Shown: positions 52,303 to 58,941, counted from the stretch's first letter. The stretch: 64,000 nt of DNA from Candidatus Bathyarchaeota archaeon (GCA_963807605.1 CAWECG010000004.1:96001-160000), one strand, 5' to 3'. A program made the numbers and translations. The notes: generated from the letters alone by a model not told the origin.

Positions 52303-52437
52303 GGGATCGTCTTTTTTACACTAATCTAGTAAACTAAATTCTCCTCAGATCTCAACTTCACATATTTATTCTGAATTGCAGACGCTCAACCTGAAACGAA
52401 CACAATTCTCTACTCCGTCTCGGTCTATCGCCTCAGG

Positions 52438-52543
52438 AATTGCTCCTCAATAGTTGATAAGGGCAATTGGTCCTTGGTTTTTTTAACAAATTCCTTTCAC
52501 AAATTCTCAAGTGTTGTTCTACTCTATTGGTTTTTCACAACTT
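52438..52543. promoter_or_regulatory. Putative operator region of the cdv operon
   Basis: Imperfect inverted repeat AATTGC..GCAATT (52438-52468) and three TTT(C/A)ACAA(A/C)TT direct repeats. Confidence 0.4.
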
Positions 52544-52580
52544 AGCTTGTATGATATACAGTTGCAGAGGAAATGGTTGA

Positions 52581-53246
52581 ATGCCAAGAAGTATCATTGG
52601 AAACTGGGACGGCGATAGTAAGGAGCCCATCATACCATTGTCACGGTTGTCAGGGCGTATTCGCCCCCAGATGCCCCTCAAAGAGAAGATCGCTCAATCA
52701 ATCTATCGTTTGAAAGTTCAGCAGAGCAAACTTGAGAACTCGTCTCAAAGAATGCAAAGGCATGACAAGAACCTCTTCGATAAATGCATCTCCGCTCAGA
52801 TGACAAAGGACAACTCCAGGGCAGCATTGTACGCCAGCGAATGCGCCGAGATCAGAAAAATGGCATCAACGGTTTTGCGATGCGAGCTGACCTTGGAGAA
52901 GGTTATTCTGAGGCTTGAGAACGTGCAGATGTTCGGCGATACGGCTGCGATGCTTGGGCCTGTAGCAGGTGTGGTCAAATCTATTAAGTCTGAGATTAGC
53001 GGGGTCATGCCTGAGGTCTCTTATGCTCTTGGTGAGATCGGTGAGACTCTAAACGGCGTAGTCATTGAAGTCGGTGAAGCCACCGGTCAACAATACGATG
53101 ACTTCGCATCCAGTTCTGAGGCTCAGCAGATACTCGGCGAAGCGTCAGCCGTGGCTTCACAGAGAATGACTGAGAAGTTCCCTGATCTGCCGAGAGTTTC
53201 AGTCCCGATCGGTTCAAGATTTACAGAGACAAGTTCGACCCAGTAG
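52581..53246 (+). CDS. cdvB: ESCRT-III/CdvB paralog without winged helix
   Basis: Snf7 core RD..LF.KC....A.LYASECAEIRK..LE...LRLE; MIM2-like EKFPDLP. Confidence 0.92.
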   Translation: MPRSIIGNWDGDSKEPIIPLSRLSGRIRPQMPLKEKIAQSIYRLKVQQSKLENSSQRMQRHDKNLFDKCISAQMTKDNSRAALYASECAEIRKMASTVLRCELTLEKVILRLENVQMFGDTAAMLGPVAGVVKSIKSEISGVMPEVSYALGEIGETLNGVVIEVGEATGQQYDDFASSSEAQQILGEASAVASQRMTEKFPDLPRVSVPIGSRFTETSSTQ

Positions 53247-53288
53247 CCCTGACTCAACATTGGAGGTTGAAAGAATACGAGCCTAACA

Positions 53289-54017
53289 ATGGAGGACCTA
53301 AAGAAATTCGTAGGGAAGACTGTAAAGGATCCTTATGGAAAAGATCTCGGCAAGCTCGTAGGAGTCACTTCCAGCATAAAGGGCGAGATTAGCAACGTGA
53401 GTATTGAGCTCTACAATGGAGATTTCGCAATCTTTCCCAGCAGACAGCTCTCAGTAAACGGAACGATACTATCCCTGGCGCAGGACTGGGCTGTTGAGGC
53501 AGATGAACTTACCAGGGAACTTGACTTACTCAGACGAAGAGACAACGCACTAAATGAGCTATCTGTAAGCGGCGATGTCGAGGAGACTATGTACAAACAA
53601 CTGAAAGAACAATTCAGACAAGCAAGAGGCGATTTGCTGAAGAGGAGCGAGGCAGCCGTTGAGAAACTTGCGGAAACCTCACAGAAGCTCGATGAACAGA
53701 TGAAGATCATCCAAACCATAATGGCCAATAACAAAATGCATTATACTTCAGGAGAGCTGGGAGAAGAGGCCTATAACTTGGCGAATGAGACAATTCAGAA
53801 TGGTCTGCGCCACTTCTCCTCTGAGAAAAAGAACATCGAAGACAAGATCAACACTCTAATAGCCTCAAGGGATAGCGCTGAAGACATCGGGACATCAAGA
53901 ATTGAGCCACAAACCAAACCCCCACCGGTGGCAGAGCCTACTGTCTTGACAAAGACTCCCGGACTCACGAAGACTGGAGGCCCAAGAGATATAGTCATAG
54001 TCCGAATGGAGCCGTAA
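53289..54017 (+). CDS. cdvA: Cell division protein CdvA
   Basis: PRC-barrel start FVGKTVKDPYGK.LG, coiled-coil domain, Pro/Thr linker and beta-strand tail DIVIVRM. Confidence 0.88.
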   Translation: MEDLKKFVGKTVKDPYGKDLGKLVGVTSSIKGEISNVSIELYNGDFAIFPSRQLSVNGTILSLAQDWAVEADELTRELDLLRRRDNALNELSVSGDVEETMYKQLKEQFRQARGDLLKRSEAAVEKLAETSQKLDEQMKIIQTIMANNKMHYTSGELGEEAYNLANETIQNGLRHFSSEKKNIEDKINTLIASRDSAEDIGTSRIEPQTKPPPVAEPTVLTKTPGLTKTGGPRDIVIVRMEP

Positions 54018-54029
54018 GAGGGATCAGCA

Positions 54030-54824
54030 ATTCTTCTGTCCAGACGGAAAGGCTGGAGGAGTCGCATCCCGCCTTCCCTGAAGGAACGTCTCTCGGACAT
54101 ACTGTATAAACTAAACATCCAGAAGGATAAGCTCGAACAGACAACAGAGAGACTCTATCAGAGAGATAACGAGATCTTCCAGAGATGTATCGGCGCACAG
54201 ATTGGCGGCGACGAGAACCACGCTAAGATATACGCTAACGAGTGCGCTGAAATCAGAAAAATGTACCTGACCGCAAAGAGCGTTCAGCTCGCACTGGAAA
54301 AGGTAACTCTCAGACTCGAAACAGTAGAGCAGTTCGGGGAGACTATTAGCCAGTTAGCTCCTATAATGGAGGTTGTGAAGGAAACTAAAGGTGAGATAGC
54401 CGGTCTAGTTCCAGACGTGGCAGGCGAACTGGACAGAGTCACATCAGTGCTCGTTGAACTAAGTGCAGAGACCGGCCAGGTGACCCCAAGTGACTTTGAG
54501 GTCCAAGTTACAAACAACGAGGCAAAGAAAATTCTGGACACTTCTCGAAAGATAGCAGATGAAAAAGCACGGGAGAAGTTCCCAGAACTGCCTTTTGCGC
54601 AATTTGAGGTGCCCGCTTCCGAAATTAGGAGTGAGCAACCTTCAAGTGGTCAACTGGATCCTTCAATTCTTGAACAAGTCCTATTCTACATAGAATCTCG
54701 TGACGGAAGGGTATCTGTCTCTGAATGTGCTAGTCGACTTTCAAGACCCCCCAGTGACGTGATCAAGGCGATAGACCAGTTGAAAGAGAAAGGAAGGCTC
54801 GCTTTGGAACAGGAAATGGAGTGA
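54030..54824 (+). CDS. cdvB: ESCRT-III CdvB with C-terminal winged helix; probable non-canonical start (ATT 54030 or CTG 54036)
   Basis: Frame open upstream of ATG 54261 encoding PSLKERL...RDNEIFQRC...YANECAEIRK; MIM2-like EKFPELP; winged-helix tail. Confidence 0.88.
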   Translation: MLLSRRKGWRSRIPPSLKERLSDILYKLNIQKDKLEQTTERLYQRDNEIFQRCIGAQIGGDENHAKIYANECAEIRKMYLTAKSVQLALEKVTLRLETVEQFGETISQLAPIMEVVKETKGEIAGLVPDVAGELDRVTSVLVELSAETGQVTPSDFEVQVTNNEAKKILDTSRKIADEKAREKFPELPFAQFEVPASEIRSEQPSSGQLDPSILEQVLFYIESRDGRVSVSECASRLSRPPSDVIKAIDQLKEKGRLALEQEME

Positions 54825-54866
54825 GCCGATCTGGAATCTGTTATCAAAGACGATGGTTGTTGAGCT

Positions 54867-56006
54867 TTGTCAGCATCTGAAGAACTTGAACGAATAGCAG
54901 TGAAGTATGCTACCGAGGCCACTCGACTTGATAAGCAAGGATCAAGGGGTCTTGCAATAGCGAAGTACCAGAGAGCCGTCGAAATCCTTCTGAAACTGTG
55001 CGCACTGTACCCAAACTCCTCACAGAACTCCATCTACATGGAGCACGCGGAGTCCTACAGAAAGAGAATAAGAGAACTCCAGAACCAGGAAAATCACCAA
55101 GAACCCGTAGAGACTGCACCTTCGGGGGCGGAGGCTAAGTTTGAACAACTCGTTCTTAATGAGAAACCAAGCGTCAGATGGGAAGATATCGCCAACCTGA
55201 ATGCCGCAAAGAGAGCTATAGAGGAATCGATAATATTTCCTGTCAAAAGACCTGATCTTTTTCCGTTAGGGTGGCCCAGGGGCATACTCTTCTTCGGTCC
55301 GCCAGGATGTGGCAAAACGCTCCTAGCCGCGGCAGTCGCAACGGAGATCGATGCCACATTCTTCTGTATCGACGCCGCATCGATAATGTCAAAGTGGCTA
55401 GGCGAGTCTGAGAAGAATGTTGCACATCTATTTGAAGAAGTCAGACGGATGAGCTCAAACGGCAAGCCTGCAATAGTCTTCATAGACGAAATCGACTCTC
55501 TGGTTGGAATCAGGTCCCAAGAGGTCGGAGGGGAAGTCAGGGCTCGAAACCAATTCCTGAAAGAGATGGATGGCGTAATCGACAAGAAGAGATTGCTTCA
55601 CGCCTATGTTATTGGCGCCACAAACAAGCCTTGGGTTCTGGACGACCCGTTCAGAAGGCGATTCCAAAAGAGGATCTTTGTGCCCCTCCCAGAAGCAGAT
55701 GCAAGGCTCGAAATGTTCAGAATATTCTCAAAGAATCTCAACATGGGCGAAGATGTGACTTTCGAAGAACTAGCGAAGATAACGGACGGGTACTCTGGCA
55801 GCGACATATACGACAACTTCCAAGCAGCCCAGATGAAAGTCGTAAGGGAGTTCTTCGAGAAAGGCAATCCAGAAGATAAGCAGGCTAAGCCCAGGCCAAT
55901 AATTATGAACGATTTCAGAGACGTATTTCGAATACGGAAGCCCAGCGTAGACCAAAGCACGATGCGTTTCTATCACAAATGGTCAGAGGAATTCCAAGCC
56001 GCCTAA
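54867..56006 (+). CDS. cdvC: Vps4-type AAA ATPase CdvC
   Basis: N-terminal MIT domain; FPLGWPRGIL.FGPPGCGKT, SKWLGESEK, DEID and RRFQKRI motifs. Confidence 0.95.
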   Translation: MSASEELERIAVKYATEATRLDKQGSRGLAIAKYQRAVEILLKLCALYPNSSQNSIYMEHAESYRKRIRELQNQENHQEPVETAPSGAEAKFEQLVLNEKPSVRWEDIANLNAAKRAIEESIIFPVKRPDLFPLGWPRGILFFGPPGCGKTLLAAAVATEIDATFFCIDAASIMSKWLGESEKNVAHLFEEVRRMSSNGKPAIVFIDEIDSLVGIRSQEVGGEVRARNQFLKEMDGVIDKKRLLHAYVIGATNKPWVLDDPFRRRFQKRIFVPLPEADARLEMFRIFSKNLNMGEDVTFEELAKITDGYSGSDIYDNFQAAQMKVVREFFEKGNPEDKQAKPRPIIMNDFRDVFRIRKPSVDQSTMRFYHKWSEEFQAA

Positions 56007-56030
56007 AGGTGTGATCGAAGGACGACAGTC

Positions 56031-56495
56031 ATCAACTCCACTGACCTCAAGATCTTAGCTGAGCTTGTGCACAACTCCAAGGCCACGCTAGCTGATATCG
56101 GCAAGAAGATTGGGCTCCACCCGAATGTAGTCGCCTACAGAATAAACAAGATGGAGAATCTCGGCATAATAAGAGACTACACAGTCAATCTTGACCTTGA
56201 GAAACTTGGACTGACAGAACAAATCTATCTCGGCACAACTTTTCCTGCCCACTCTGAACGTGATACATTGCTGAAACAGATATCAGCCCTGCCTCAAAGC
56301 ATCACAGTGGTAAGCTCCTTCGGATCCCCAGAAGGGATAGTTCACCTCGTAGGTAAGAGCAAGGAAGACATAGACAAGGTCATAACAAGACTGAGAGAAC
56401 TGAACGTAAAGATCGAGTACGCTGCCCCTGTCATCAAGACCTATCAAAGTGGAAACCTCGGTAATTTCCTCAAGATGATGGCCGAAGCACACTAA
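56031..56495 (+). CDS. Lrp/AsnC-family transcriptional regulator; start probably upstream of GTG 56067
   Basis: INSTDLKILAEL..NSKATLADIGKKIGL..VVAYRI.KME..GII.DY HTH. Confidence 0.85.
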   Translation: MNSTDLKILAELVHNSKATLADIGKKIGLHPNVVAYRINKMENLGIIRDYTVNLDLEKLGLTEQIYLGTTFPAHSERDTLLKQISALPQSITVVSSFGSPEGIVHLVGKSKEDIDKVITRLRELNVKIEYAAPVIKTYQSGNLGNFLKMMAEAH

Positions 56496-56516
56496 GCCAC
56501 CGGCAGGTTATGAAAA

Positions 56517-57008
56517 ATGCCCCTTTCCAAACTGCTTATGAGACTCCTCACGAGGCCACAACGGCACACACTGTTCTCCATGGTTACCGCTACCATTCTG
56601 ACTGTAATCCTTGTGGTGATCCTTCCTAAACCCAACGACTCCATTATGACAATCGCCATTCAAGTGATGATCTCTGCAGCCATCTCATCCGTGGTACTGA
56701 ATGAGCTCTTCCTTGGACTGGTAGACAGGAAGCGTGACATGGCTATTCTGCTGGTAATTGGAGTTCGGAAGCATCTTTTAGGAGCTATCCTGCTCGGAAA
56801 AACGATTCTATATGCTTCCGTTTCCTGTTTCCTCGGGGTAGCTCTTGGATACATACTGATGCTGTATAATGGCGGGCACCTGACCTTGACGCTCAATTCT
56901 TCCATGACCTTGTCTTCTTTAGCGATCTTCGGTCCTGCTCTTCTAGCTGGTGCATACACCACATTGTACATATCCCGCCTGAATGTCTCTGAGGTGCTCA
57001 GACATTGA
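56517..57008 (+). CDS. Minimal FtsX/MacB-type (type VII ABC) permease, 4 TM, no large extracellular domain
   Basis: RKRDMAILLVIGV...ILLG..ILY....LGVALG motif; C-terminal RLNVSEVLR. Confidence 0.8.
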   Translation: MPLSKLLMRLLTRPQRHTLFSMVTATILTVILVVILPKPNDSIMTIAIQVMISAAISSVVLNELFLGLVDRKRDMAILLVIGVRKHLLGAILLGKTILYASVSCFLGVALGYILMLYNGGHLTLTLNSSMTLSSLAIFGPALLAGAYTTLYISRLNVSEVLRH

Positions 57009-57700
57009 CAGAGAACTCAGCCATAATTTCCGTGAAAAACCTACACAAAGCCTTCAGGGACGGGTCTTCCACAATTCGGCTTTTCAACGGACTTACCTTC
57101 GAAGTATCGAAGGCTGATTTTGTTGCTGTTACAGGTGCCTCAGGAACCGGAAAGACCACTCTCATCAACCTTATCTCGGGTCTTGAAAAACCAACTCAAG
57201 GCTCAGTCAAGGTTCTTGGCAAGGAACTCTCGTCTTTAAGCTCAAGTGATCTCGCGGTAATCAGGGCGCATTCAATAGGCATACTATTCCAGACGTTTGG
57301 GCTGATAAACGACTTGACTGTTCAGGAGAATATCGAGCTCGCTCAGGATCTTTCAAGAAATAATGGGTCGAGGCGAGATAGATACGCGTCTGAGTTACTT
57401 GAGTTCTTCGGCATCCAGGACAAGGCGAACTTCAGCCCCGCCAGCCTCAGCTTCGGCGAAGCCAAGAAAGTTGGAATAGCAAGAGCTCTTGCAGCCGAGC
57501 CAGAGATCCTCTTGCTTGACGAACCAACCGGAAACTTAGATCCGCCCTCAGTGAATGTCCTCCTACCGATCCTTAGAGGGTTGAGGCACATATACGGAAA
57601 GACTATAATCATGACTACAAACAGTCTTCGCGCGGCGAAGATTGCAAACCGCGAGATTCGTTTGGAAAGGCCCACAATGATGATGAACCAAATTATGTGA
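57005..57700 (+). CDS. FtsE/LolD-like ABC ATPase with degenerate motifs
   Basis: GASGTGKTT, FQTF.LI..LTV.ENI, LSFGE and LDEPTGNLD motifs; H-switch region reads MTTN. Confidence 0.9.
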   Translation: MTENSAIISVKNLHKAFRDGSSTIRLFNGLTFEVSKADFVAVTGASGTGKTTLINLISGLEKPTQGSVKVLGKELSSLSSSDLAVIRAHSIGILFQTFGLINDLTVQENIELAQDLSRNNGSRRDRYASELLEFFGIQDKANFSPASLSFGEAKKVGIARALAAEPEILLLDEPTGNLDPPSVNVLLPILRGLRHIYGKTIIMTTNSLRAAKIANREIRLERPTMMMNQIM

Positions 57701-58320
57701 TGTATATGTTCAGATATAAACCAACATTGGGAGAAAGAATAAGAGAAACCTTTCACCCGACACCAGTAAAACGGCGACTAAACCATACCATCCACCGACT
57801 GCAGATCCAAATGCGACGACTCGAATCGAAGACCTATCAACTCCAGTCTAGAGACAAGGCTCTATACGCAAAATGCGTCTCAGCAATACAAGGAAAGAAC
57901 AATACCCAGGCATCGATGTACGCGAGCGAATGTGCAGAGATCAGAAAGATGGTCCTCACCACTCTGCGCAGCCAAATGGCAATAGAACGCGTATACCTAC
58001 GACTTGAGACAGTCAGGGACTTTGGAGAGATAGCATACGCAATGAGCTCAGTAGGAGCTGTCCTAGGCAAAGTGAGGACCGATCTCCAAAACTTGATGCC
58101 TGAGATATCGACAGAGCTCGCTGAAGTTAACGATACACTGCAGTCAGTAGTCCTCGAAGTAGGTCAGGCAACGGAACAGACCCTCGATTTCAACGCACCC
58201 ACAGAGGAGTCCGAGGCGATAATGAAAGAAGCCGGAACCCTGGCGGAGCAGAGGATGAAAGAGAGATTCCCAGAGATGCCCAAGATTCCGACAGCTGAGG
58301 AAGGCTCTTCCCTACCATGA
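57697..58320 (+). CDS. cdvB: ESCRT-III/CdvB paralog
   Basis: RD..LY.KC...A.MYASECAEIRK..LRLETV; MIM2-like ERFPEMP. Confidence 0.92.
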   Translation: MMYMFRYKPTLGERIRETFHPTPVKRRLNHTIHRLQIQMRRLESKTYQLQSRDKALYAKCVSAIQGKNNTQASMYASECAEIRKMVLTTLRSQMAIERVYLRLETVRDFGEIAYAMSSVGAVLGKVRTDLQNLMPEISTELAEVNDTLQSVVLEVGQATEQTLDFNAPTEESEAIMKEAGTLAEQRMKERFPEMPKIPTAEEGSSLP

Positions 58321-58323
58321 TAG

Positions 58324-58941
58324 GTGGAAAAGCCAGGTAAGATGTCGCAACTTTCTGAGTCCGAGCTCAAGAGCTTCCTGGGAAAGAGGACCACCGACCC
58401 CTATGGTCGGAACCTCGGAAAGATCATAGGAGTGACGCTGAACGACTATGGTGAAATGGAAGCGGTCGAGGTGGAGAAGGGAACAGGGGAGCTTGAAAGA
58501 ATTCCAGTGGATCAACTCAGTTTTAGCCGAGAAGGAATAACGGTCGTCTCCAAGTGGAAGATCGAAGTCGAATCCCTGATTAAAGAGATTGAGTCGGCAG
58601 AACGTCGCCTCACCGCACTCAACACCCTTCTAAAGAAGGAAGAGATTCCAAGAAACCTATACGAAGAACTGTCCGGAAAACAAAAGAGAGAACTTGAAAA
58701 CCTACAAGCGAAGAAGAATCTCGCTATCAACATACTGCAGAGAAGAGGCAAAGAACTGGACGGGCAGATCGAGGAGTTAACAAAAGTTCTCATTGAGATC
58801 AGAGCTGGGAAATGGTCCAGTGACTTCTCCGACAAGGCGTACGAATTTGCATCAAAATCAATTGAACCAAACCTCAGCTTTGCGGCCAAAGAAAAGAGAG
58901 AGCTTGCAGACAGCCTCGCCAAGCTAACCAAGCTAATCTGA
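58324..58941 (+). CDS. cdvA: Second CdvA-like protein, lacking the C-terminal tail
   Basis: FLGKRTTDPYGRNLGKIIG PRC barrel, W..E...L.KEI...RRL.AL..L coiled coil. Confidence 0.82.
   Translation: MEKPGKMSQLSESELKSFLGKRTTDPYGRNLGKIIGVTLNDYGEMEAVEVEKGTGELERIPVDQLSFSREGITVVSKWKIEVESLIKEIESAERRLTALNTLLKKEEIPRNLYEELSGKQKRELENLQAKKNLAINILQRRGKELDGQIEELTKVLIEIRAGKWSSDFSDKAYEFASKSIEPNLSFAAKEKRELADSLAKLTKLI

Follow-up and report, generated by a model that had tools for sequence, protein, structure and literature searches.

An extended cdv operon of Bathyarchaeia with a stripped-down type VII ABC gene pair linked to cdvA

A 64,000-nucleotide stretch of DNA from Candidatus Bathyarchaeota archaeon (GCA_963807605.1 CAWECG010000004.1:96001-160000), which we call the window and from whose first letter all coordinates are counted, carries at 52581-58941 an extended cdv operon of Bathyarchaeia. 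[quoted passage not shown] An open reading frame (ORF) listing and Pfam and NCBIfam searches gave nine ORFs on the + strand in the order cdvB-cdvA-cdvB(wH)-cdvC-lrp-permease-ABC ATPase-cdvB-cdvA, where wH stands for a C-terminal winged helix. The ABC complex is probably made of a permease dimer and an ATPase dimer. The conserved genomic partner of the permease-ATPase pair is CdvA, in the window genome the tail-less CdvA paralogue 2 (58324-58941). Judging from this gene linkage, we give about an even chance to the proposal that the pair, gated by nucleotide, either tethers CdvA to the membrane or regulates its assembly there.

RESULTS

The pair and a second cdvA are present or absent together

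An earlier note on this DNA had suggested a synteny survey of relatives, and the survey bore out the conservation of the locus. We mapped 45 loci around cdvC from the window's taxonomic order by tblastn, labelling families f1, f2, and so on, and genera g3, g5, and so on. Each of the eight f1 genera has all nine genes (type I locus), as do f6, f9, three f2 genera and one f5 contig; the outcome that the note had named as refuting, cdv loci of relatives without the pair, did not arise in these groups. The same nine-gene order recurs in relatives at 25-85% protein identity, and does so down to about 30-50% identity with the window's own proteins, far more than chance would give. A type II locus, cdvB-cdvA-cdvB(wH)-cdvC-lrp-cdvB, occurs in f4, f5, f7, part of f10 and two other genera of f2; f8 and part of f10 have a type III locus, which is type II without lrp. 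The first cdvB (paralogue 1) keeps its position in all mapped loci, and in most of the order's cdv loci lrp comes after cdvC, whether the ABC pair is present or not.

Where the ABC pair is missing, the downstream cdvB remains but there is no second cdvA. Profile searches of the 16 type II/III loci with enough flanking sequence found no ABC ATPase, no short permease and one CdvA only within ~20 kb; genome-wide, the genomes without the pair gave a single CdvA match and generic ABC scores only. The pair and cdvA paralogue 2 sit at separate positions in the operon, yet they are present or absent together. CdvA paralogue 2 forms one clade (support 99/95) across f1, f2, f6 and f9 and is thus old in the order; window paralogue 1 falls into the clade of first-position CdvA proteins. 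It appears from these trees that there was more than one loss of cdvA paralogue 2, the ABC pair going with it on every occasion; the backbone is too weak to count the events.

The type I fragment from f5 is on a 3.5-kb contig (C196, locus L033) of genome G040, which has a separate cdvC on contig C187; two congeners have type II loci. This fragment may be contamination or a second locus.

The two CdvA paralogues also differ at the C-terminus. The tail of paralogue 1, RDIVIVRMEP, is kept in relatives. In an alignment of paralogue 2 (A3), the f9 and f6 proteins carry a short strand-like C-terminal tail (EPIVLQLEG, SLTLHVRE) that resembles it; those of f1 end at the coiled coil, and f2 keeps a short unrelated tail only. 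In paralogue 2, loss of the E3B-like tail seems to be a secondary event.

In a second order the pair lies beside the only cdvA

A profile of the cdv-linked ATPase separates the type I genomes cleanly (at least 276 bits). The next-best matches include ATPases that lie beside the sole cdvA in genomes of another Bathyarchaeia order. Eleven loci of family f14 read Zn-ribbon gene-cdvA-short four-transmembrane FtsX-type permease (168-198 amino acids)-ATPase, and one locus of f13 reads cdvA-cdvB(wH)-permease-ATPase. In f14 the genes cdvB-cdvB(wH)-cdvC are located elsewhere in the genome (~33 kb from cdvA in genome G108), and lrp is absent from the pair's loci. When the cdv locus is split, therefore, the ABC pair stays with cdvA. 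We take CdvA to be the partner because the pair remains with cdvA in every arrangement, including the split locus, and because it is lost together with the second cdvA.

These results modify what the earlier note had made of the cluster. It had tied the ABC pair to ESCRT-III, as an undescribed membrane anchor or regulator. The embedding of the pair and of lrp in a cdv cluster is real and conserved, but the conserved partner is CdvA and not ESCRT-III, and the 4-nucleotide overlap between the ATPase gene and cdvB is local to the window; relatives have gaps of 13-35 nucleotides.

Several observations weigh against the proposal that the pair tethers or regulates CdvA. About half of the order's genomes do without it. 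The window's ATPase gene overlaps cdvB, not cdvA. A tree of concatenated CdvC and CdvB needs three gain/loss changes, of which well-supported branches force one only. Eleven short permeases from elsewhere in the phylum were examined, none with Cdv neighbors. Finally, all genomes sampled in another class of the phylum and Sulfolobales do without the pair, so it cannot be a general CdvA tether; in that class we found no cdvA-linked ABC pair in 30 cdvA loci (±1.5 kb) or 8 loci (±6.5 kb). There was likewise no ABC gene near cdvA in the other Bathyarchaeia families sampled. Given its absence from about half of the order, the pair belongs as an accessory to a single CdvA paralogue and not to the Cdv system as a whole. 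The window CdvA query itself matched most of the other families and 0 of 71 genomes of a large Bathyarchaeia family, f22.

The same maps bear on whether the pair might act directly on ESCRT-III, anchoring or activating polymers of the downstream CdvB paralogue rather than CdvA. Gene order offers some reason to think so: the ATPase stop overlaps the cdvB start in the window, cdvB always follows within 35 nucleotides of the ATPase gene in type I loci, and the f13 pair comes after cdvB(wH). However, every locus without the pair retains this cdvB paralogue, and the f14 pair lies with cdvA and has no adjacent cdvB. Moreover, Sulfolobus CdvB paralogues bind membranes alone, via N-terminal amphipathic helices (PMC12818579), and so would have less need of an anchor. 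We consider direct action on ESCRT-III unlikely.

The permease has no extracytoplasmic domain

The permease of the window has a loop of ~7 residues between transmembrane helices 1 and 2, and 33 of 33 orthologues have one of ~7-10 residues (alignment A2), which leaves no extracytoplasmic domain. The 33 aligned sequences keep the FtsX motifs after the second helix and at the C-terminus, and 27 of them match Pfam FtsX. An AlphaFold2 (AF2) model of the window protein (predicted local distance difference test score, pLDDT, 84.9) shows a direct helix-loop-helix at residues 35-43. When this model was used as a Foldseek query, the top 40 matches were all type VII ABC permeases (HrtB, YtrF, BceB, LolC/E, FtsX, MacB), with a TM-score of 0.5-0.7 overall and 0.6-0.7 against chains consisting of the transmembrane part only; the E values were weak (4.7e-3 or worse) at a probability of 1.00. 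The predicted structure is that of a four-transmembrane MacB/FtsX-type fold.

Without an extracytoplasmic domain, export or outward mechanotransmission is unlikely. With nothing outside the membrane, the complex would have to act within the bilayer or at its cytoplasmic side.

A four-transmembrane ORF of 154-172 amino acids lies between lrp and the ATPase gene in every type I locus, including those where tblastn missed it. A protein search with the permease profile returned mostly a 155-amino-acid form from soil Bathyarchaeia and had no wider taxonomic reach. Public annotation calls the homologues "hypothetical protein" or "ABC-type antimicrobial peptide transport system permease."

In other Thermoproteota, three loci (L086, L090, L091) have a stand-alone FtsX-type permease of 195-217 amino acids paired with an ABC gene. 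Two of these pairs adjoin a geranylgeranylglyceryl phosphate (GGGP)-synthase-like gene, identified by eye from N-terminal sequence only, and an Elf1-like Zn-ribbon gene. Because such short FtsX and ABC pairs occur without Cdv neighbors, the short architecture alone implies no Cdv role. Type VII ABC pairs that lack an ectodomain would make up a wider archaeal group.

The ATPase forms a dedicated clade with a degenerate H-loop

The earlier note had asked how the ATPase relates to FtsE, LolD and MacB, and had called the pair FtsEX-like. LolD and FtsE are indeed the best NCBIfam matches, but the protein fails both equivalog cut-offs (LolD TIGR02211, 176.9 against 307.75; FtsE TIGR02673, 172.7 against 264.85). 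The nearest solved structures include LolD and MacB (E 1e-37 to 1e-39). In a tree, all 38 of the 38 cdvA-linked ATPases form one clade with Shimodaira-Hasegawa-like (SH-like) support of 0.944, sister to the window genome's own MacB/LolD-like ATPases. The other MacB-like systems of that genome have long permeases.

The orthologues all keep Walker A (GASGTGKTT), the Q-loop (FQ), Walker B (LLLDEPT) with its catalytic Glu, and the D-loop (GNLD). Two motifs depart from the usual form. In place of the canonical LSGGQ, the signature is LSFGE in the window, and in 38 of 38 cdvA-linked ATPases another residue stands where the first Gly would be, which gives LSxGE or, more broadly, LSxG(E/Q); the MacB/LolD-like and most other ABC proteins of the window genome have (L/M)SGG(E/Q). 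The H-loop reads TTN in place of TH, and its His is replaced in 27 of 27 orthologues of the window's order by Asn (f1, f6, f9) or Ala (f2). Outside that order, the residue is His in f14 and Arg in f13. Published H-loop mutants of ABC ATPases bind ATP and dimerize but hydrolyze it slowly. By analogy, loss of the H-loop His in the window's order predicts ATP binding and dimerization with slow hydrolysis.

These features also bear on a second alternative, in which the pair works inside the membrane, moving or extracting, say, a lipid or other embedded molecule at a division or budding site, and is co-regulated with Cdv without being bound to it. The closest folds among type VII relatives include LolCDE and HrtBA, which take their substrates from the bilayer; the f14 orthologues have the full catalytic set including the H-loop His, and short FtsX and ABC pairs elsewhere adjoin the GGGP-synthase-like gene mentioned above. 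We nevertheless judge this reading improbable, to about the same degree as direct action on ESCRT-III. There is no ectodomain to take an extracted substrate, the H-loop His is lost across the window's order, which speaks against a high-turnover pump, and the strict tie to one CdvA paralogue is left unexplained.

Least probable of all, we think, is a pair that hitch-hikes in the operon with no Cdv function, as a small exporter of the ordinary kind or an ABC system of the resistance type, possibly regulated by Lrp: the public annotation of close homologues, the MacB/LolD type of the nearest sequence families and the position of the permease gene directly behind lrp would fit, but the linkage to cdvA holds in three different gene arrangements and outlasts the splitting of the cdv locus, the pair is lost jointly with cdvA paralogue 2, lrp stays behind where the pair is missing and does not occur in the f14 loci, and the ATPase clade is a dedicated one, apart from the genome's other MacB-like systems with their long permeases. 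The linkage data thus argue against both direct ESCRT-III action and a hitch-hiking exporter.

Layout of the cluster

The nine co-oriented, tightly packed genes that the earlier note described are all present at the coordinates it gave, and Pfam and NCBIfam confirmed their families. The elements of the cluster are as follows.

52303..52580, +: upstream intergenic region, 278 nucleotides; likely a promoter region (putative), whose T-runs could end transcription of the unrelated gene before it
52581..53246, +: cdvB paralogue 1, CdvB1/B2-like ESCRT-III without a winged helix, 221 amino acids; NF041005 E 3.3e-62, Snf7 27.0 bits (cut-off 27.3)
53289..54017, +: cdvA paralogue 1, PRC barrel, coiled coil and C-terminal tail RDIVIVRMEP, 242 amino acids; PF18822 53.1 bits (cut-off 30)
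54018..54824, +: cdvB(wH), the main CdvB, with a C-terminal winged helix; NF041008 E 5e-26, positions 89-259 for the ATG-started part, 54261-54824, which spans the last two thirds of CdvB
54867..56006, +: cdvC, Vps4 AAA+ ATPase, 379 amino acids; MIT, AAA, AAA_lid_3 and Vps4_C domains, NF041006 E 6.6e-154
56031..56495, +: Lrp/AsnC-type regulator, start uncertain (GTG 56067 is the first canonical one); HTH_24 25.5 bits
56517..57008, +: short FtsX-domain permease, four transmembrane helices, 163 amino acids; PF02687 27 bits (cut-off 25.5)
57005..57700, +: MacB/LolD/FtsE-type ABC ATPase, 231 amino acids; ABC_tran E 6.6e-31, best NCBIfam matches LolD and FtsE
57697..58320, +: cdvB paralogue 3, CdvB1/B2-like, without a winged helix, 207 amino acids; NF041005 E 2.5e-50, Snf7 31.1 bits
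58324..58941, +: cdvA paralogue 2, PRC barrel and coiled coil without a C-terminal tail, 205 amino acids; PF18822 56.8 bits

Both 4-nucleotide overlaps reported earlier hold: permease and ATPase share TTGA (57005-57008), and ATPase and cdvB share GTGA (57697-57700), so that the start of cdvB paralogue 3, GTG 57697 or ATG 57700, overlaps the ABC stop. The remaining gaps are 3-42 nucleotides. Within the cluster, the + strand has a single T-run of at least five, inside cdvC at 55258; this scarcity of internal T-runs fits a predicted single transcript. The upstream intergenic region has T6 at 52312, T7 at 52478 and T5 at 52531. The flanks are unrelated, with adenylylsulfate (APS)-kinase-like and DUF35/ChsH2-like genes upstream and a convergent gene for an unknown protein and prolyl-tRNA synthetase downstream.

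The two CdvA copies score 91 and 75 bits against the NCBIfam equivalog, whose cut-off is 350, and both are thus divergent members of the family. A profile of paralogue 2 matches the solved Sulfolobus islandicus CdvA (9s9g) over residues 7-200 (E 2.3e-36). The domain scores of CdvC (MIT 30.4, AAA 128.4, Vps4_C 23.6 bits) are each above cut-off, and the whole protein scores 512 bits against NF041006 (cut-off 650). In Lrp, the helix-turn-helix (HTH) model HTH_24 is above its cut-off of 21.9 bits; the match to AsnC NF008384 (positions 19-125) is weak (E 1.7e-8) and far below cut-off.

Two genes probably use non-canonical start codons

The cdvB(wH) frame is open from 54018, right behind the cdvA stop and in phase with cdvA. 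It contains no ATG, GTG or TTG before 54261, and these ~80 conserved codons (54018-54261) encode the ESCRT-III N-terminus. A conserved Shine-Dalgarno-like sequence, GAGGGATC, lies downstream of the cdvA stop, ahead of a candidate start codon. The cdvB(wH) start is likely ATT 54030, which is suitably placed, or CTG 54036. The cdvA/cdvB(wH) junction is kept in 10 loci of f1, in which the start region has no ATG, GTG or TTG, or has an in-frame TTG only (5 loci). The likely start codon in relatives is ATT or ATC, with TTG or CTG in some. Such a conserved junction suggests deliberately weak, coupled initiation. Read-through of the cdvA stop to give a CdvA-CdvB fusion was ruled out: genus g3 has TGA TAG, and one genome of g5 has a second in-frame TAG.

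The second case is lrp. The frame is open from 56007, at the cdvC stop, and the HTH of the protein begins 5′ of GTG 56067: HTH_24 positions 15-48 align with residues 3-36 of the GTG-started ORF, and the Lrp proteins of relatives align from query residues 8-10. Initiation at GTG 56067 would truncate the HTH, and the start is likely ATC 56031. If used, this codon would likely be the second non-canonical start within the operon.

DISCUSSION

A 2026 structural study of Sulfolobus CdvAB (PMC12818579) bears on how CdvA reaches and marks the membrane. In that work, CdvA filaments bind no membrane in vitro, and partners that tether or activate them are postulated, as a speculation (Drobnic et al. 2026). 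The permease-ATPase pair described here is a concrete, clonable candidate. We imagine that ATP-driven closure of the ATPase dimer would change the cytoplasmic face of the complex, and that the changed face would recruit, nucleate or release CdvA filaments at the membrane. The filaments could then template the adjacent ESCRT-III (CdvB) paralogue that lacks a winged helix. In the window's order, where loss of the H-loop His would slow hydrolysis, the complex might act as a switch rather than a motor. The process served may be division or vesicle budding. In its fullest form, the proposal would cast the pair as the membrane partner still missing for CdvA in these archaea: a tether, gated by ATP, through which the CdvA scaffold is nucleated or positioned on the membrane. 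It would then be an independently evolved archaeal counterpart of the connection between FtsEX and FtsA/FtsZ, and the first integral-membrane component of an ESCRT-type division machine. We put this forward tentatively, as a possibility to which we give somewhat less than an even chance.

FtsEX of bacteria also contacts the cytoplasmic division proteins FtsZ and FtsA. The resemblance of the window pair to FtsEX is one of fold and analogy, and to that extent the label FtsEX-like stands: the ATPase belongs to the same broad subfamily, the four-transmembrane FtsX-domain permease has the same fold, and there is a genetic tie to the division machinery. However, the window pair has no extracytoplasmic domain and hence no EnvC/PcsB-type partner that activates hydrolases. 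Its link is with CdvA/ESCRT-III and not with FtsZ, it fails the FtsE cut-off, and the window's order lacks the H-loop His. The pair is an analogue of FtsEX, not an orthologue.

A similar comparison applies to MacB, LolCDE, HrtBA, BceAB and YtrEF. They give the best fold matches to the permease model, and the nearest ATPases of solved structure include LolD and MacB. Their permeases, however, carry periplasmic or extracellular working domains of 100-250 residues where the window protein has its loop of ~7. The pair is a type VII ABC complex reduced to cytoplasmic and membrane parts, with a degenerate H-loop in one order, and it would exemplify an ABC engine turned into an intracellular switch.

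The canonical cdvABC locus is that of Sulfolobales (Lindas 2008; Samson 2008). The window shares with it, and with the ESCRT systems of the TACK archaea (Thaumarchaeota, Aigarchaeota, Crenarchaeota and Korarchaeota), a CdvA with PRC barrel and coiled coil, a winged-helix CdvB, CdvC/Vps4 and extra CdvB paralogues without the winged helix. It differs in that all paralogues are gathered in one operon together with a second CdvA, Lrp and the membrane ABC pair. The part of Makarova 2024 (PMC10936438) that treats the TACK ESCRT system describes it as "minimal," notes for Bathyarchaea that additional CdvA-like proteins are encoded away from the locus, and names no ABC component. In the literature we searched, there was no description of a cdvA-linked ABC pair, and FtsEX and CdvA occurred together in one paper only, in unrelated passages. 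TACK ESCRT systems are not uniformly "minimal."

Two further genes were noted during the analysis. In f14, a gene for a ~100-amino-acid Zn-ribbon protein with four cysteines always lies 5′ of cdvA, the permease gene and the ABC gene (L066:9310-9612, with equivalents in L067-L075 and L082). Some cdv loci of f2 and f6 (L031, L032, L040, L041, L045) have a weak homologue upstream in divergent orientation, and none was found in the window's genome. The other gene gives that genome's only tubulin/FtsZ-family match, at G000:C4:172872-174257, outside the window and ~13 kb past its end. The match is spread over three reading-frame pieces, the middle one with GGTGSG, and the gene may be frameshifted or split by small introns.

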